In this document: positions 35,612-43,869 of the stretch, one piece after another
Position numbering within the stretch: position 1 is the first letter of the stretch
Layout of the letters: every line of letters begins with the position of its first letter
From: a virus
DNA length: 64,000 nucleotides
IMG/VR virus record: IMGVR_UViG_3300042549_010246
Span: 1-64,000 of that record
Direction: 5' to 3' (one strand)
Program-made: the position numbers and the translations under genes
Notes under the pieces: generated by a model
Databases searched by the model: none
Told to the model about the DNA's origin: nothing
The model's input: the letters and a program-made list of their open reading frames with translations, nothing else

Positions 35612-36313
35612 ATGAATAATGTCCGTAAATACCTTGCTGACGCACAAAATCGTGCTCACGAGGGCTTCTTGAATGCCGATGGCTTCTTTGATGACGATTT
35701 GAACTTCACCGCAGGTGATGATTTTATGAATGCAAATGGCAACGACGCTATGCCTGCTGCCGCTCCAACCTCACAACCTTACATCATTCAAATTTCTAAC
35801 ACAGGTTCTGCTGTTGCGAATTTCAGTGTATTGGGTTCTTACGAGCAGTTGGGTGATACTGCAGCATTTACTTCGGGTAACTTTATATCAGGAGACGTGA
35901 CTATTTCGTCTGCTATTCCAAACGTAACCTATCAGCAAATGTTGTATCAGTTTATGAACAACCCTTTCAGCACAGGTTTGACTTACATTCAGTCTTCTTC
36001 AAACACACAGTTGTTGGAAACAATCAGTGTGCAAACTAAAGACGCGAATGGTAACGTGGCCCAAAAGCCTTTGGTGCCTACTATTGACCCATATCAGTTT
36101 CAGACTACCGTCCTTGCTCTCCGTTTCGGATACAGAATTGACGGTTACACTAAATTGATTTTGAATTCAATTTTGGCTTCAACCACCGTGAAGTTGTATC
36201 TGTACCCTGCAGACAACATCAACTTGGCTCGTGGATTGTCAGGACGCGCTGTATCAAAAGATTTCAGCAGCCCAGGCATTGTACGTGCTCAAACCGTGAA
36301 AATCCAAGGTTAA
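35612..36313 (+). CDS. Candidate major capsid protein (jelly-roll)
   Basis: Beta-rich with no TM; high-expression codons (TTC/AAC/ATC/CGT); long A-rich leader, own terminator, adjacent ATPase. Confidence 0.55.
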   Translation: MNNVRKYLADAQNRAHEGFLNADGFFDDDLNFTAGDDFMNANGNDAMPAAAPTSQPYIIQISNTGSAVANFSVLGSYEQLGDTAAFTSGNFISGDVTISSAIPNVTYQQMLYQFMNNPFSTGLTYIQSSSNTQLLETISVQTKDANGNVAQKPLVPTIDPYQFQTTVLALRFGYRIDGYTKLILNSILASTTVKLYLYPADNINLARGLSGRAVSKDFSSPGIVRAQTVKIQG

Positions 36314-36334
36314 TCCCTTTTTTACGATTTATAG

Positions 36335-36373
36335 AAAAGGGGCGATGGCACACAGCCTCGCCCCTTTTTTTTT
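36335..36373 (+). terminator. Strong Rho-independent terminator after the MCP
   Basis: AAAAGGGGCGA...TCGCCCC followed by T9. Confidence 0.9.
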
Positions 36374-36395
36374 AATAGGCTAAAATCAAATAATT

Positions 36396-36566
36396 ATGGC
36401 ATATAAAGTCAAATTGGGTAACAAGGATTACTTCTCAGAAGAATTTTCTTCAGAGACGGAAGCAAAAAAAGCAAAGTATTTCGCCATTGTAGGTGCAAAA
36501 ACTTTTCGCAGTGCATCGAAATCGATGGACACAAAAATTGTAAAAGTTGTAAAAAAGAAAAAATAA
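36396..36566 (+). CDS. Small basic protein (56 aa, not in track)
   Basis: MAYKVKLGNKDYFSEE...VVKKKK. Confidence 0.65.
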   Translation: MAYKVKLGNKDYFSEEFSSETEAKKAKYFAIVGAKTFRSASKSMDTKIVKVVKKKK

Positions 36567-36949
36567 TGACAATCTACGAGTATATCGCAAGAAACAATCC
36601 GATGGGTGCTAAAAGAGTAATTGAATCTTTTGGCTATGTGGTAACACAACCTAAAAAAATGGGCGATAACCTTCGTATGTTGGTTGCGCAAGAAGGAGAG
36701 CCCGCTTTAAAAGCAGTCGTTGATTTACATCCTGATAAAGACTTAATTTTAGAAGTTTTCGGGAATAGTCAAAGTGTTAAAGCAACGGGTGAAAATTTCT
36801 TTGGAGCCGATGGTCTACTTCAAAGCGCAGTTTTAAATAACAACCAACAGCAAAATGACAGCAACAATAAAATGGTGCTTCAAACAAACACATTAATTGT
36901 GGCCTTATCACTCCTTGTAGTTGCAGGGTTAATATTAAAGAATCGATGA
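36566..36949 (+). CDS. Virion membrane protein (C-terminal TM)
   Basis: FFGADG motif; TM followed by KNR. Confidence 0.75.
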   Translation: MTIYEYIARNNPMGAKRVIESFGYVVTQPKKMGDNLRMLVAQEGEPALKAVVDLHPDKDLILEVFGNSQSVKATGENFFGADGLLQSAVLNNNQQQNDSNNKMVLQTNTLIVALSLLVVAGLILKNR

Positions 36950-37548
36950 AAAATTTGAAACCTAACGAAATTTACGCTGTATCAGCGATGACAATTGACA
37001 ACAATACTGAAGGGGTAAAAACCCTGATTACAAAGTATGGTGTCATTTTGCCAAACAATGCAAGTCGAAGTGATATTGACAAAGCATTTGCAGCCCTTTT
37101 AAGAAAGAGTAAATCTTTCCGCAACGATTTTGCTGTATTGGCGGCAAATGAAAGTCAGAAGAGCGAAAACTTCTCAAATTTTATGGAATTTTTAGGTATG
37201 TCAGGAAGAGGTATTGGAACAGCAAGTGCTCCTTTAAAAACTCCCGACCCAATTCCTGTAAAAACAAGTTTACCGAACACAACTGCAAAAAAACCAAGTG
37301 CATTTGCGGAAGCATTTGATGCTGACACAATTAGAAACGTCATCAATACGGGATTAAATATTTGGGCTACCCGCTCAGGTACTACAGCCTCAACTACAAA
37401 TGATTTACAATCAGGTAGGGAATCTTTGAATTTACAACCCCAAAGTCAACAAACACGTGGTATTGGAACGACGGGAATCGTTTTGATTTCAATTGGTGCA
37501 CTTGCAGCGGTAGGTGTTTTGATTTATTACCTATCTAAAAACAAATGA
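36946..37548 (+). CDS. Virion membrane protein (C-terminal TM)
   Basis: GIVLISIGALAAVGVLIYYL-SKNK. Confidence 0.75.
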   Translation: MKNLKPNEIYAVSAMTIDNNTEGVKTLITKYGVILPNNASRSDIDKAFAALLRKSKSFRNDFAVLAANESQKSENFSNFMEFLGMSGRGIGTASAPLKTPDPIPVKTSLPNTTAKKPSAFAEAFDADTIRNVINTGLNIWATRSGTTASTTNDLQSGRESLNLQPQSQQTRGIGTTGIVLISIGALAAVGVLIYYLSKNK

Positions 37549-37549
37549 T

Positions 37550-41680: not shown

Positions 41681-41681
41681 T

Positions 41682-42230
41682 ATGAAAAAAATAGTACTGA
41701 ATAAAAATTTACAATATGGCCTTTACGTAGTAGCGGCTATAATTGGTGGTTTTGCAATAGTAAAAATTGTCAAAGCAATTAAAGACAATGCGGATAAAGG
41801 TGATGATGATGACAAAAAGCCTGAACCTGAAACCAAAACGGTTTATGTAGATGCATACTTGTCGAAGTTACCTTTAGGAGTAGATAATTTGACTTGGGGT
41901 TCACGAATCCCCGCGAAGTATTTACCGTCTTTTAATGCTATTTCAGCAGCCAATTCAGATGCTACATTTAAAGCGAATGCTATCAGAGTTCAAACTTTGT
42001 TGAATCAAAGACTTGCCGCGATTGGTGGTGCTTACCCAAAAATAACAGTTGATGGAAAAATTGGTGAAGAAACAACCAAAGCGATGTTGGCAGTTGCAAG
42101 CCAATATGGTAGATTGAACTTATTACCTTTAACGAAAAAAGAAGACCTGAACAATTGGTTGACTTTTTTCAATGTAAAATCAACTTCGGATTCTTCTCCA
42201 AAGAATGAATTCCCATTTTTCAACAAATAA
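41682..42230 (+). CDS. TM-anchored peptidoglycan-binding protein
   Basis: VQTLLN...VDGKIGEETTKAM (PG_binding_1 pattern). Confidence 0.7.
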   Translation: MKKIVLNKNLQYGLYVVAAIIGGFAIVKIVKAIKDNADKGDDDDKKPEPETKTVYVDAYLSKLPLGVDNLTWGSRIPAKYLPSFNAISAANSDATFKANAIRVQTLLNQRLAAIGGAYPKITVDGKIGEETTKAMLAVASQYGRLNLLPLTKKEDLNNWLTFFNVKSTSDSSPKNEFPFFNK

Positions 42231-42242
42231 TACGATAAGAAT

Positions 42243-42803
42243 ATGGACATAGATTCTTTTTTCACAGATGGCGACCTAAGTTTCGGAATGGACGGTGCAA
42301 GCCCTAAATTCAAAAACTTTGCAGGAACAGGTCAAAATGTTTCGAGGGGACCTAAATATGGTGAATTTCAATTCAATAAATACCCCGAGTATGGGTTTAC
42401 TGATGATATTTATTCAAACGCTACGGGCGGTTCAAGGTTAAATCAGCCAACGGAATGGTATGTTTCAAAACTTTCCGAAGCCGATAAAAAAGACTGTAAA
42501 AAATTGCAGGGTATTATGGATAATATTTCCATAGATATTGATAAGAACAACAAAAAAATAAGCACTGCAAAAAGAGGTGAAAGAAGAGTTCTTGAAGAGT
42601 ATAACAAGGGCTTGGAATTGGCAGGCAAAAGAGTATTGGAATTAATGAACGCTGCAAATTGCACTCTCGTTCAGCAGGAAGAATTTAATAAAGCGTTAGG
42701 CGCGGCAGGTGCACCATCAAAATCATCGAAAGTTGTTTTGTATGTTGGCATTGGAGTTGCAGCCTTGGCTCTTGGAGTTGTACTTTACAAAAAATTTAAG
42801 TAA
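42243..42803 (+). CDS. Membrane protein (C-terminal TM)
   Basis: YSNATGG motif, helical core and TM. Confidence 0.7.
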   Translation: MDIDSFFTDGDLSFGMDGASPKFKNFAGTGQNVSRGPKYGEFQFNKYPEYGFTDDIYSNATGGSRLNQPTEWYVSKLSEADKKDCKKLQGIMDNISIDIDKNNKKISTAKRGERRVLEEYNKGLELAGKRVLELMNAANCTLVQQEEFNKALGAAGAPSKSSKVVLYVGIGVAALALGVVLYKKFK

Positions 42804-43570
42804 TGAGAACAAACATCAGTAAACAATTGGGATTACCCATCGCTCCCCCACAGCCTAAAGCACCGTCTATAGAGGCTCAATTGGGTTTTGTAGCAGAATA
42901 TGATAATTCTTTGAATAAAAGTAATTTTAATTTCGTAGCAGAATATGATAAGTCTTTAAACACCAAAAATAATGGTGGCTATTTTGACGCTACAGGAGAA
43001 GAAAAGAACTTCAAAGAATATTACAAAGGAAATGTTGCAAACGTTCGCGCTTTGTTGGCACAGGAGAAAATTTCTACCTCAGAGGATTTAGATTTTCTTG
43101 AAGCCAAGAAAAAGTTTTATCAAGAAGGAAAGAAATCTTTGGAAAAAGATATCAATGGTATCAAAATAAATCAAGCACAAAAAGCATTTGGGACGCAAGC
43201 CTATACACAGCGCGGAAAATATGTTTCTCAATTATGGAGCGTAGATAAAACAATCGAATTGATTGATGAAAGAATTGCGGATGTAAAAGTCATTTTGGAG
43301 AAAAGAGCGGCAAAGGCGAAGGCTGATGCAGATGCGGCAGCAGCAAAAATGAAAGCAGAAGCAGAAGCCGCCAAACAAGCAAAAATCAATGCATTAAAAA
43401 AACAAATTGCAGAATCTAATGACCCGAATGCCAAAAAACAACTGAAGGACCAATTGAATGATTTATTGCAGGAAGGAACTGAAGGAGTGAAATCAAACAA
43501 ATTTATTTTGATTGGTGGAGCGGTAGCCGTCATTGGAATTTTGTATTACTTTTTTAGAAACAAGGAATAA
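42803..43570 (+). CDS. Coiled-coil membrane protein
   Basis: Duplicated FVAEYD.SLN, YFDATG, Ala/Lys coil and C-terminal TM. Confidence 0.75.
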   Translation: MRTNISKQLGLPIAPPQPKAPSIEAQLGFVAEYDNSLNKSNFNFVAEYDKSLNTKNNGGYFDATGEEKNFKEYYKGNVANVRALLAQEKISTSEDLDFLEAKKKFYQEGKKSLEKDINGIKINQAQKAFGTQAYTQRGKYVSQLWSVDKTIELIDERIADVKVILEKRAAKAKADADAAAAKMKAEAEAAKQAKINALKKQIAESNDPNAKKQLKDQLNDLLQEGTEGVKSNKFILIGGAVAVIGILYYFFRNKE

Positions 43571-43572
43571 TT

Positions 43573-43869
43573 ATGTCAATTCAATATCAAGGTGCAGGTT
43601 ATAGTTCATTTGAAGAATTTATGAATGATACGGGCGTAGACAAAGATAATTTTGCCGATGCTAAAAAATCAGCAAATCAATTTGGAACCAAGTTTCAAGA
43701 AACATTCAATAAAGAATTTAAAAACCAATATACGGAGGCTAAAGAAAGGGCCAAAAGATTGGATTCGCAACCAAAAGTGTTGAATCCCATTCCCAACAGT
43801 TTATTGTATTTTGGATTGGTGACGGCAGGTATTTATTTGGCATATTCGTTTATTTTCAAATCAGAATGA
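43573..43869 (+). CDS. Small membrane protein
   Basis: C-terminal TM. Confidence 0.7.
   Translation: MSIQYQGAGYSSFEEFMNDTGVDKDNFADAKKSANQFGTKFQETFNKEFKNQYTEAKERAKRLDSQPKVLNPIPNSLLYFGLVTAGIYLAYSFIFKSE

Follow-up and report, generated by a model that had tools for sequence, protein, structure and literature searches.

A short aromatic peptide common to a candidate coat protein and several membrane proteins of an uncultured virus, and its possible role in docking shell to membrane

The candidate coat-protein module and its recurrent peptide

The DNA analyzed here (the window) is the first 64 kb of the IMG/VR virus record IMGVR_UViG_3300042549_010246, an 84,705-bp genome, rated 100% complete, of an uncultured lake virus whose relatives are found on contigs of 70–130 kb. 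The window has a GC content of about 0.35 up to a giant collagen-like open reading frame (ORF) starting at 52323 and includes a + strand block at 33.4–44.4 kb comprising a Walker-A ATPase, a hairpin, a 37-amino acid (aa) ORF, a 233-aa protein and about 19 small ORFs. The subject of this analysis is a short peptide that recurs in the products of this block (the module) and that in its usual form consists of an acidic residue, an aromatic residue, any residue, N/G/S, usually A, D/N/S/T and G. The module ORFs and peptide copies described below are all on the + strand, and one strong hydrophobic helix, either C- or N-terminal, was detected with a hydropathy window in 16/20 ORFs of 35612–44378.

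The 233-aa protein, a candidate major capsid protein (MCP) encoded at 35612–36313, is composed of an arm (aa 1–52) and a beta-rich core starting at TSQPYI, after which hydrophobic stretches alternate. The first 17 residues read as a basic amphipathic stretch that could lie on the membrane. Directly after this conserved stretch comes the first motif copy, FLNADG (aa 19–24, 35666–35683), then a second shared peptide, FFDDDLNF (aa 25–32, 35684–35707), which resembles the N-terminus of the 42243 ORF, and then a second motif copy, FMNANG (aa 38–43, 35723–35740), which only some of the 42 related loci described below possess. The protein matched no Pfam or PHROG family at E ≤ 0.1, and a profile search of PDB sequences returned no relative (best E-value 0.24, an unrelated protein); nothing was found in the ESM Atlas either (best 0.76).

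The other copies are carried by small proteins, each with one predicted transmembrane (TM) helix. Immediately downstream of the coat gene, a 127-aa tail-anchored protein (36566–36949) combines a conserved 66-aa N-domain, a variable linker, FFGADG (aa 78–83, nucleotides (nt) 36797–36814) and a C-terminal TM helix. A 74-aa protein with an N-terminal TM helix (38454–38678) has YGNADGG near its C-terminus (aa 61–67, nt 38634–38654), and a 93-aa tail-anchored protein (39284–39565) has FVNADGG (aa 40–46, nt 39401–39421). Further downstream are three more tail-anchored proteins: one of 186 aa (42243–42803) with FFTDGDLSF (aa 6–14, 42258–42284), FKNFAG (aa 23–28, 42309–42326) and YSNATGG (aa 57–63, 42411–42431), a coiled-coil-like one of 255 aa (42803–43570) with YFDATG (aa 60–65, nt 42980–42997), and one of 98 aa (43573–43869) with the variant FMNDTG (aa 16–21, nt 43618–43635). 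The carriers thus amount to at least five unrelated single-pass families. Most have a long acidic N-terminal part, no signal peptide and a helix at the very C-terminus; in the remainder the helix comes first, followed by a Lys-rich flank and then the motif, which always lies on the long soluble side of the TM helix or after a Lys-rich flank. Every string that a preliminary description of this DNA had listed was recovered from + strand ORFs in its reported place.

A strict form of the motif, [FY].[ND]A[DTN]G, gave six matches in a six-frame scan of the 64 kb, all in + strand ORFs and starting between 35666 and 42980. A looser pattern gave 11 matches in the same scan, nine of them in module ORFs, one in another frame (61199) and one on the minus strand (42730). 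Using greedy/simple ORF calls over the whole 84.7-kb genome (108 ORFs, 26,981 aa, with the giant fibre counted apart), the 20 module ORFs (2,831 aa) contained six strict copies, versus one in the 18,812 aa of other genes (in the 81228 ORF) and none in the giant fibre. Shuffled module proteins contained on average 0.03 strict copies (maximum 2), and 0/5,000 shuffles reached six. The strict pattern was defined after seeing the data and these shuffle statistics are thus flattering, so the case was rested on conservation in relatives. Two copies lie outside the module, YGNASG in the 68339 ORF and YFNANG in the 81228 ORF (genome positions); homologues of these ORFs occur in only one of five related genomes, where the copies read YGNASG and YFNAHG, and they add little weight.

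The motif codons vary at synonymous sites, with Ala encoded as GCC, GCA, GCT or GCG, which points to a motif at the protein level and rules out a DNA-level repeat. Paralogy of the carriers was also ruled out, blastp at 1e-3 giving self matches only and no cross matches. A further candidate, the choline or cell-wall-binding repeat (Y-Y-F-x-x-x-G), was rejected, there being no PF01473 match at E ≤ 10 in the genome and the copies being mostly single.

Conservation of the peptide in related genomes

Homologues of the 233-aa protein are numerous, with 1,382 detected at E ≤ 0.001 among 1,782 candidates and 579 representatives in a library clustered at 50% identity. From IMG/VR, 46 related loci were collected (L-numbers below; P-numbers denote coat-family cluster representatives), 42 of which have a full coat gene; L012–L015 were fetched via a small paralogue and not via the coat gene. 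All 42 with the full gene have the motif in the coat arm. Across an alignment of 120 sequences (61–98% identical), A22, G24, F25, D27 and F32 were found in 120/120, F/Y19 in 119, D23 and F38 in 118 each, L30 in 117, N21 in 107 and G43 in 104, the arm being conserved as strongly as the core.

A deeper survey covered 150 listed of the 579 representatives, down to about 30% identity, and in 116 of these the core is preceded by an arm of 25 residues or more. The pattern [FYW].[NSGD]A[DNTSE]G occurred in 45/116 arms (52 copies), compared with a mean of 1.0 motif-bearing arms and a maximum of 5 in 1,000 shuffles. The median start of the first arm copy is residue 19, just past the conserved N-terminal stretch, and copy number ranges from 0 to 3, some arms having two or three copies at a period of 7–8 residues. 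Many arms negative for the strict form have near-variants in which V, F or Y replaces A.

In the 52 arm copies, the fifth place is D in 33, N in 8, S in 5, T in 4 and E in 2, the third place is N in only 24, and the residue after the motif Gly is F, D, A, G or another, with G in 5. This composition bears on two alternatives to a role in the shell. The motif might bind a non-shell partner, be it an assembly chaperone, a host factor or divalent cations bridging acidic arms to lipid head groups. Acidic residues usually precede the motif, the arms are net acidic in 79/116 representatives, and the Asp/Asn-Gly turns and the FFDDDL run could join in metal binding; a possible partner is also at hand in the 37-aa ORF directly before the coat gene (35460–35573), which has one hydrophobic helix and a basic C-terminal tail and might serve the acidic coat arm as a membrane partner in stoichiometric amounts. 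However, the motif is unlike the DxDxDG loop of EF-hands in having an aromatic at the first ligand position, S or T, both weak as metal ligands, frequently fill its D position, and no chaperone candidate was identified, so that a non-shell partner is regarded as unlikely. An EF-hand-like loop as such was rejected on the residue statistics of the arm copies. In L051, a 42-aa ORF similar to the 37-aa ORF of the window is located ahead of the coat gene.

The second alternative, that the motif is a site of post-translational modification such as glycosylation by the virus's own glycosyltransferases, draws on the presence of several glycosyltransferase genes in the genome and on copies reading N-A-T, N-A-S or N-D-T, which fit the N-x-S/T sequon. 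Against this, the commonest forms NADG, NANG and GADG are not sequons, the N position is often G or S, and the copies should face the cytoplasmic side. The third- and fifth-place counts above (N in 24, S or T in 5 and 4 of the 52 arm copies) do not fit a sequon, and this explanation is given very little credence.

Conservation in the membrane-protein carriers was assessed after clustering 605 downstream proteins of 39 loci, the window included. The 36566 family was present in all 35 loci that reach the gene after the coat gene, with the strict motif in 20/35 and the loose motif in 33/35, always in the same place, 25–30 residues ahead of the C-terminal helix and after an often Cys-rich linker. 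Column conservation in this family was 0.5–0.9 over the motif and 0.0–0.3 in its flanks. The homologues in L004–L044 mostly have a CxC...C cluster in the linker just before the motif, possibly a metal knuckle; the window copy is without this cluster. Strict and loose motifs were found in 3/6 and 6/6 members of the 38454 family and in 7/31 and 16/31 members of the 39284 family (31 loci), and the strict motif in 4/5 members of the 42803 family, inside a highly variable N-terminal region. The N-terminal peptide of the 42243 ORF is kept in 8/8 aligned orthologues, and the NA[TYL]G of this protein falls where the alignment is poor and the sequence variable, one of the eight orthologues having lost it. 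Orthologues of the 43573 ORF (seven sequences) keep [ED]xF[FM]xxT[GN] but not the Ala, a variant outside the strict pattern. A merged cluster including the 42243 ORF had the strict motif in 9/104 and the loose motif in 39/104 members, and an N-terminally anchored cluster, whose window member, the 41135 ORF, is without the motif, had them in 18/67 and 31/67. Among the clustered downstream proteins, the families of the 37723, 40561, 43866 and 38788 ORFs were never motif-bearing. Within families, the orthologue alignments indicate that the motif is gained and lost, with several copies kept per genome.

Across 31 non-redundant loci (the set minus the near-duplicates L003, L025, L027 and L046 and the loci without the HExxH gene described below), 59 strict copies were found in 69,524 aa downstream of the coat gene versus 7 in 74,347 aa upstream, taking a downstream span of 8.5 kb and excluding the HExxH protein itself from the count. 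The downstream density is approximately ninefold that upstream, and shuffled downstream sets contained on average 2.9 copies (maximum 12 in 300). At least one strict downstream protein was present in 29/31 loci and at least one broad form (A/V/M/F in the fourth place) in 31/31.

An extreme form of carrier was found in L034, L036, L037 and L054 (e.g. L054 650–778), where proteins of 42 aa or slightly more, often three or four in tandem, consist of a short N-terminus, a hydrophobic helix, a Lys-rich stop and [ED/Q]-G-F-[FY]-G-[AM]-[SN]-G, some ending 4–5 residues later. Judged from this layout, the motif would be the entire exposed part of the 42-aa mini-anchors. Larger paralogues of the mini-anchors in the same loci have Cys-rich C-terminal domains.

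The preliminary description's proposal of a shared motif is borne out both by enrichment beyond chance in the window and by conservation in homologues, in the coat arms and in the downstream excess of copies. The possibility that the matches arise by chance from a flexible pattern and an Asn/Asp/Gly-rich composition may be suggested by the post hoc choice of pattern, by FKNFAG and FMNDTG falling outside the strict form and by the lack of conservation of a related string, SDEDLNF, discussed below. Shuffles that keep composition never reach the observed counts, however, and the motif is kept in orthologues whose flanks vary and in ninefold downstream excess, so that chance is already refuted by the conservation tests in relatives. 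Taken together, these comparisons argue that the motif is a real, selected short linear peptide. No published description of the motif or of the virus group was found in the literature searched, subscription journals being mostly outside that search, and as far as these searches reach the motif is undescribed.

The coat family itself shows further variation. A coat-core paralogue without an arm (149 aa, genome 70618–71067) aligned with the core in hhalign at 88% and E 3e-6, and the start of the adjacent armless 120-aa ORF (genome 71067–71429) resembles the first strand of the coat core; both, corresponding together to L047 4618–5429, are possible penton or minor shell proteins. L051, on the same contig as L011, contains two coat-family genes (10001–10654 and 13218–13919), and in relatives with two coat genes one product has an acidic motif arm and the other a basic, hydrophobic N-terminus and a basic C-terminal tail. 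For the representatives P0247, P0299, P0321 and P0346 (320–411 aa), the query is matched at two separate places, as though by a fusion of two cores, which may be informative about how single and double jelly rolls evolved. No stretch conserved enough for searching emerged when 12 basic-arm representatives were aligned. In single-protein scans, P0330 and P0340 gave no matches and P0252 matched, via its core only, ordinary motif-bearing loci; alongside a motif-bearing coat gene in the same genome, P0283 constitutes a second coat paralogue. No motif-less lineage was found via the scans of these four basic-arm representatives.

The HExxH protein, the cargo peptide and neighbouring genes

Mid-cluster, as noted in the preliminary description, the ORF at 39776–40558 encodes a 260-aa soluble protein with a beta-rich N-terminal part and an HEFSH sequence (aa 187–191, nt 40334–40348). 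H187, E188 and H191 are invariant in 55 aligned sequences, as are E201, E203 and D205, located 10–14 residues downstream of the HExxH and candidates for the third zinc ligand. The protein has 1,710 homologues at E ≤ 0.001, and its gene is present in 35/42 loci, the other seven breaking off with no more than 627 aa of ORF sequence past the coat gene. The window protein matched no Pfam or PHROG family at E ≤ 0.1 (best Pfam M56, E 0.3), nothing was obtained with PF18894 at E ≤ 10, and a profile search of PDB sequences gave no relative (best E-value 0.43, an unrelated protein). Among the 55 homologues, weak matches were to PhageMetallopep in 11, M56 in 9, SprT-like in 8 and M48 in 5, with best E-values of 0.001–0.0095 for these four, all short of cut-offs, and to the unrelated PDDEXK_14 in 9 and YkuD_2 in 6. 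The ESM Atlas returned only the protein's own clusters and a 0.87 lead to DUF4344. It is a conserved core gene product and probably a zincin metallopeptidase (clan MA). The protein has its own Y-x-S-D-D-G (aa 130–135, 40163–40180), in which Y130 and S132 are invariant in the 55 sequences; with Asp in place of Ala this is a motif look-alike that could be structural or a pseudo-substrate.

The position of this gene raises the alternative that the zincin recognizes or cleaves the motif, so as to trim the coat arm and the membrane-protein ectodomains during maturation, either as the sole function or as a means of releasing a docked state. Its status as a mid-cluster core gene, its invariant catalytic-type residues and the weak zincin-clan matches of its homologues are in keeping with such a role, as are the placement of the motif at boundaries between domains and anchors and the finding that other protease families sought, C48, C5 and C57, were not detected (PF02902 and PF00770 for C48/C5). 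A precedent exists in vaccinia virus, where, in the available text of PMC3169552, I7 cleavage of the A17 N-terminus correlates with scaffold release. On the other side, the window zincin passes no Pfam threshold, cleavage of the mini-anchors would remove just 4–5 residues to no obvious use, an arm copy number of 0–3 looks more like multivalent binding than cleavage, and conservation of the coat arm as strong as that of the core would be atypical of a propeptide destined for removal. Equally possible roles of the zincin are in lysis, in entry or in processing the Gly-Gly seams of the cargo proteins of the same virus, and nothing was found tying it to the motif. Cleavage, alone or on top of docking, is considered unlikely as the function of the motif but is a live rival to docking.

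The cargo seam peptide, [MF]-A-[DK]-G-G, is found repeatedly in the 14729, 24757, 28038 and 31675 ORFs. It too is a recurrent short peptide, and some copies of the present motif contain the same A-D-G letters, which had led the preliminary description to liken the motif to the cargo MADGG. In the seam, however, the Gly-Gly is invariant and M/F stands three positions ahead of its first Gly, and the seam lies in large soluble multi-module proteins at 14.7–32 kb. The present motif, in contrast, conserves a single Gly, with an aromatic at position −5 and N/G/S at position −3 relative to it, and belongs to the morphogenesis module. The likeness is therefore superficial: identity was ruled out by the different register, and because of the invariant Gly-Gly and the other spacing the cargo motif was treated as separate.

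The second shared peptide, FFDDDL[NS]F, is conserved within its own family both in the coat arm and in the 42243 N-terminus, and in both proteins a motif copy follows 6–10 residues after it; judging from this shared arrangement, the 42243 N-terminus may copy coat residues 25–43. The preliminary description had extended this likeness to SDEDLNF (aa 136–142, 15134–15154), next to an FADGG seam in the 764-aa cargo-type ORF at 14729–17023 on the + strand. All the DLNF-type strings are indeed present, but SDEDLNF is kept only in the closest relative, that is in one of five homologous loci, and this match is weak and possibly due to chance. A possible resemblance between DDDLNF and the acidic tip at the C-terminus of bacterial single-stranded DNA-binding protein was dropped, the peptide here being internal.

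Upstream of the coat gene, the ORF of a candidate packaging-type ATPase (34452–35273, +), possibly of the A32/FtsK-HerA type to which jelly-roll capsid genes of Varidnaviria are linked, has a Walker A sequence, GKKGVGKT, and matches AAA_22 (E 0.0015) and HerA/DUF87 (E 0.0038), both weakly and below Pfam cut-offs. A strong terminator-like hairpin (35306–35330) separates the ATPase and coat genes. A tailless virus, as put forward in the preliminary description, agrees with the absence of matches at E ≤ 1 in the 84.7-kb record to Phage_capsid PF05065, Terminase_6N PF03237 and Phage_portal PF04860, the three families covered by this check of HK97-type capsid, terminase and portal genes, in which 30 proteins were scanned; the PHROG "tail fiber" matches in the genome arise only from the collagen repeat. 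Neither the coat protein nor the HExxH protein had a match among 50,697 deposited phage records.

In addition to the motif carriers, the module encodes an N-anchored 170-aa protein (43866–44378) that passes the LEA_2 cut-off (E 3.4e-6, 27.9 bits) and an N-anchored 182-aa protein (41682–42230) with a sub-threshold PG_binding_3 match (E 3.3e-4). After the module, the ORFs at 44785–45669, which is collagen-like, and 45666–46433 have in common an N-terminal E-G-N-G-L-A-[VI]-[YF] followed by D-x-[ND]-G-x-I-Q, which may be a shared anchoring domain of fibre proteins. Four GTDB loci with the coat gene were found, in metagenome-assembled genomes (MAGs) labelled Bathyarchaeia (two), Planktophila and Sediminibacterium, and given these mixed labels MAG binning is weak evidence of host. 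The Sediminibacterium (Bacteroidota) locus, L054 (contig JBBAJS010000009.1, 132,486 bp), is the most divergent full module, with a coat protein 59% identical to that of the window.

Docking between shell and membrane, and comparison with known systems

The preferred reading, to which a rough probability of 0.45 is assigned, is that the motif is a docking knob for one shared receptor, probably the capsomer base, at the interface between shell and membrane. From the features described above we infer membrane topology, receptor, binding and the coat identity of the 233-aa protein alike. Under the positive-inside rule, and with tail-anchored proteins behaving as they normally do, the motif copies would face the cytoplasm. 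In PRD1 and other phages that contain a membrane, it is the cytoplasmic leaflet that ends up facing the shell; the copies would thus meet in the narrow gap between the shell and the inner membrane. The knob may be formed by the aromatic as an anchor together with a tight Asx/Ser-Gly turn, plugging into one shared receptor, most likely a pocket at the base of the coat capsomer. The coat arm would tie neighbouring capsomers together or regulate them, and the membrane proteins, by copying the coat arm, would anchor the shell to the membrane and be incorporated into the virion. Such tethers may be trimmed by the zincin encoded nearby, in the way that I7 processes vaccinia A17.

Docking is preferred because the motif is enriched in the module (6 copies versus 1, with 0/5,000 shuffles), because it is conserved in relatives (42/42 arms, 59 versus 7 copies and 45/116 distant arms), and because in the 36566 family it forms a conserved island between a globular domain and the TM helix. 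It also rests on carriers that are otherwise unrelated and whose motif codons differ, on mini-anchors that expose only the motif, on the consistent placement of the motif on the long soluble side of a single helix or after its Lys-rich flank, and on the D13/A17 and HCIV-1 precedents considered below. Of the preliminary description's two suggestions, a common capsid-docking peptide and a metalloprotease-based maturation system, the former fits this anatomy best, with the motif in variable and presumably flexible segments on the predicted shell-facing side of the membrane and kept as its surroundings change, and the latter is left without any result linking the zincin to the motif.

Several observations weigh against docking. 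Among the listed representatives, 71/116 arms are without the strict form, and some coat-family members are armless or basic-armed. Conservation is patchy in some carriers, the strict motif being kept in only 7/31 members of the 39284 family and lost in 3/6 of the 38454 family. The loci are mutually related and the counts obtained from them are not independent. The coat identity and jelly-roll fold of the 233-aa protein, a candidate from its context, and the topology, deduced from charge and length only, belong to the same side of the balance. Finally, a ligand common to coat and membrane proteins implies that they would compete for one site, which is plausible on the model of D13/A17.

A more elaborate version, an "address and zipper" code in which one 6–8-residue knob on coat arm and membrane proteins, mini-anchors included, is later clipped by the zincin, is thought rather unlikely as a whole. 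The knob would plug a single pocket under each capsomer and so select membrane proteins for the viral membrane, its interaction would nucleate the shell on the membrane and set shell curvature, and clipping of the knobs by the zincin would uncouple shell and membrane for maturation or DNA delivery. If true, this would be a bacterial-virus counterpart of D13/A17/I7 in the form of a readable sequence code, present in large, uncultured phages of tailless type that number in the hundreds.

It is poorly understood how tailless viruses with a membrane select the proteins of that membrane and attach the shell to the vesicle, and for bacterial viruses knowledge of the shell–membrane link rests on a few small cultured models. 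The present group, widespread and uncultured (1,382 coat homologues), offers a candidate for this link that can be read from sequence. If the motif is a docking knob, virion membrane proteins could be predicted from their sequences and the D13/A17 principle of a shared pocket at the capsomer base would extend to bacteria; if it is instead a zincin site, it would point to an unusual metalloprotease-based maturation in a jelly-roll-type virus.

Comparable short sites on several virion proteins of a jelly-roll virus, served by one viral protease, are known from adenovirus, where adenain cuts (M/L/I)XGG-X sites. The present motif differs in that Gly-Gly is not conserved (G after the motif Gly in 5/52 arm copies), no Peptidase_C5 was found and the candidate enzyme is the HExxH protein; adenain-type processing sites were rejected accordingly, there being no PF00770 or PF02902 match. 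Small membrane proteins that contact a jelly-roll shell from the inner membrane include P16 of PRD1, P3/P6 of PM2 and p17 of African swine fever virus. To our knowledge each of these linkers has its own interface, and we know of no description of a single motif shared with the coat protein; literature searches, whose coverage did not extend to subscription journals, likewise found no motif common to coat and linker proteins.

The archaeal HCIV-1 and HHIV-2 viruses, the genomes of which are far smaller, offer a structural parallel. In these membrane-containing viruses with vertical single beta-barrels, according to the available text of PMC6414509, the N-terminal residues of VP7 dock under the base of a neighbouring jelly roll, membrane-proximal "GPS" proteins, one with a predicted C-terminal TM helix, position capsomers on the vesicle, and a TM protein under the penton also positions capsomers. 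The likeness to the arrangement proposed here lies in an N-terminus placed under a neighbour and in membrane-proximal positioning proteins. As differences, no common peptide among those proteins is reported in that text, no sequence relation was detectable, and the window coat protein has no solved relative.

By analogy, vaccinia D13, binding both its own N-terminus and the A17 tail, is considered the closest analogue. In the accessible portion of PMC13672803, the base cavity of D13, a double jelly roll, takes D13's own N-terminus as well as the tyrosine-rich N-tail of A17, and in that of PMC3169552, D13 needs the A17 N-terminal region to coat the membrane, I7 cleavage there correlating with scaffold loss. 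As would be the case here, a short peptide rich in aromatics, borne by an integral membrane protein, keeps a jelly-roll lattice without TM segments on a viral membrane. As for the peptide itself, in the present virus the pattern as defined requires each copy to begin with an aromatic (F, Y or W), which orthologues retain, and the exposure of the peptide on the lattice side is predicted from topology. The two systems differ in that vaccinia is a eukaryotic virus with one anchor protein, that no sequence motif shared by D13 and A17 is reported in the accessible portions of these papers, and that its protease is a cysteine enzyme, whereas no C57, C48 or C5 match was found here. In the virus analyzed here the likeness, known from sequence alone, shows up as a single motif shared by the coat arm and at least five membrane-protein families.

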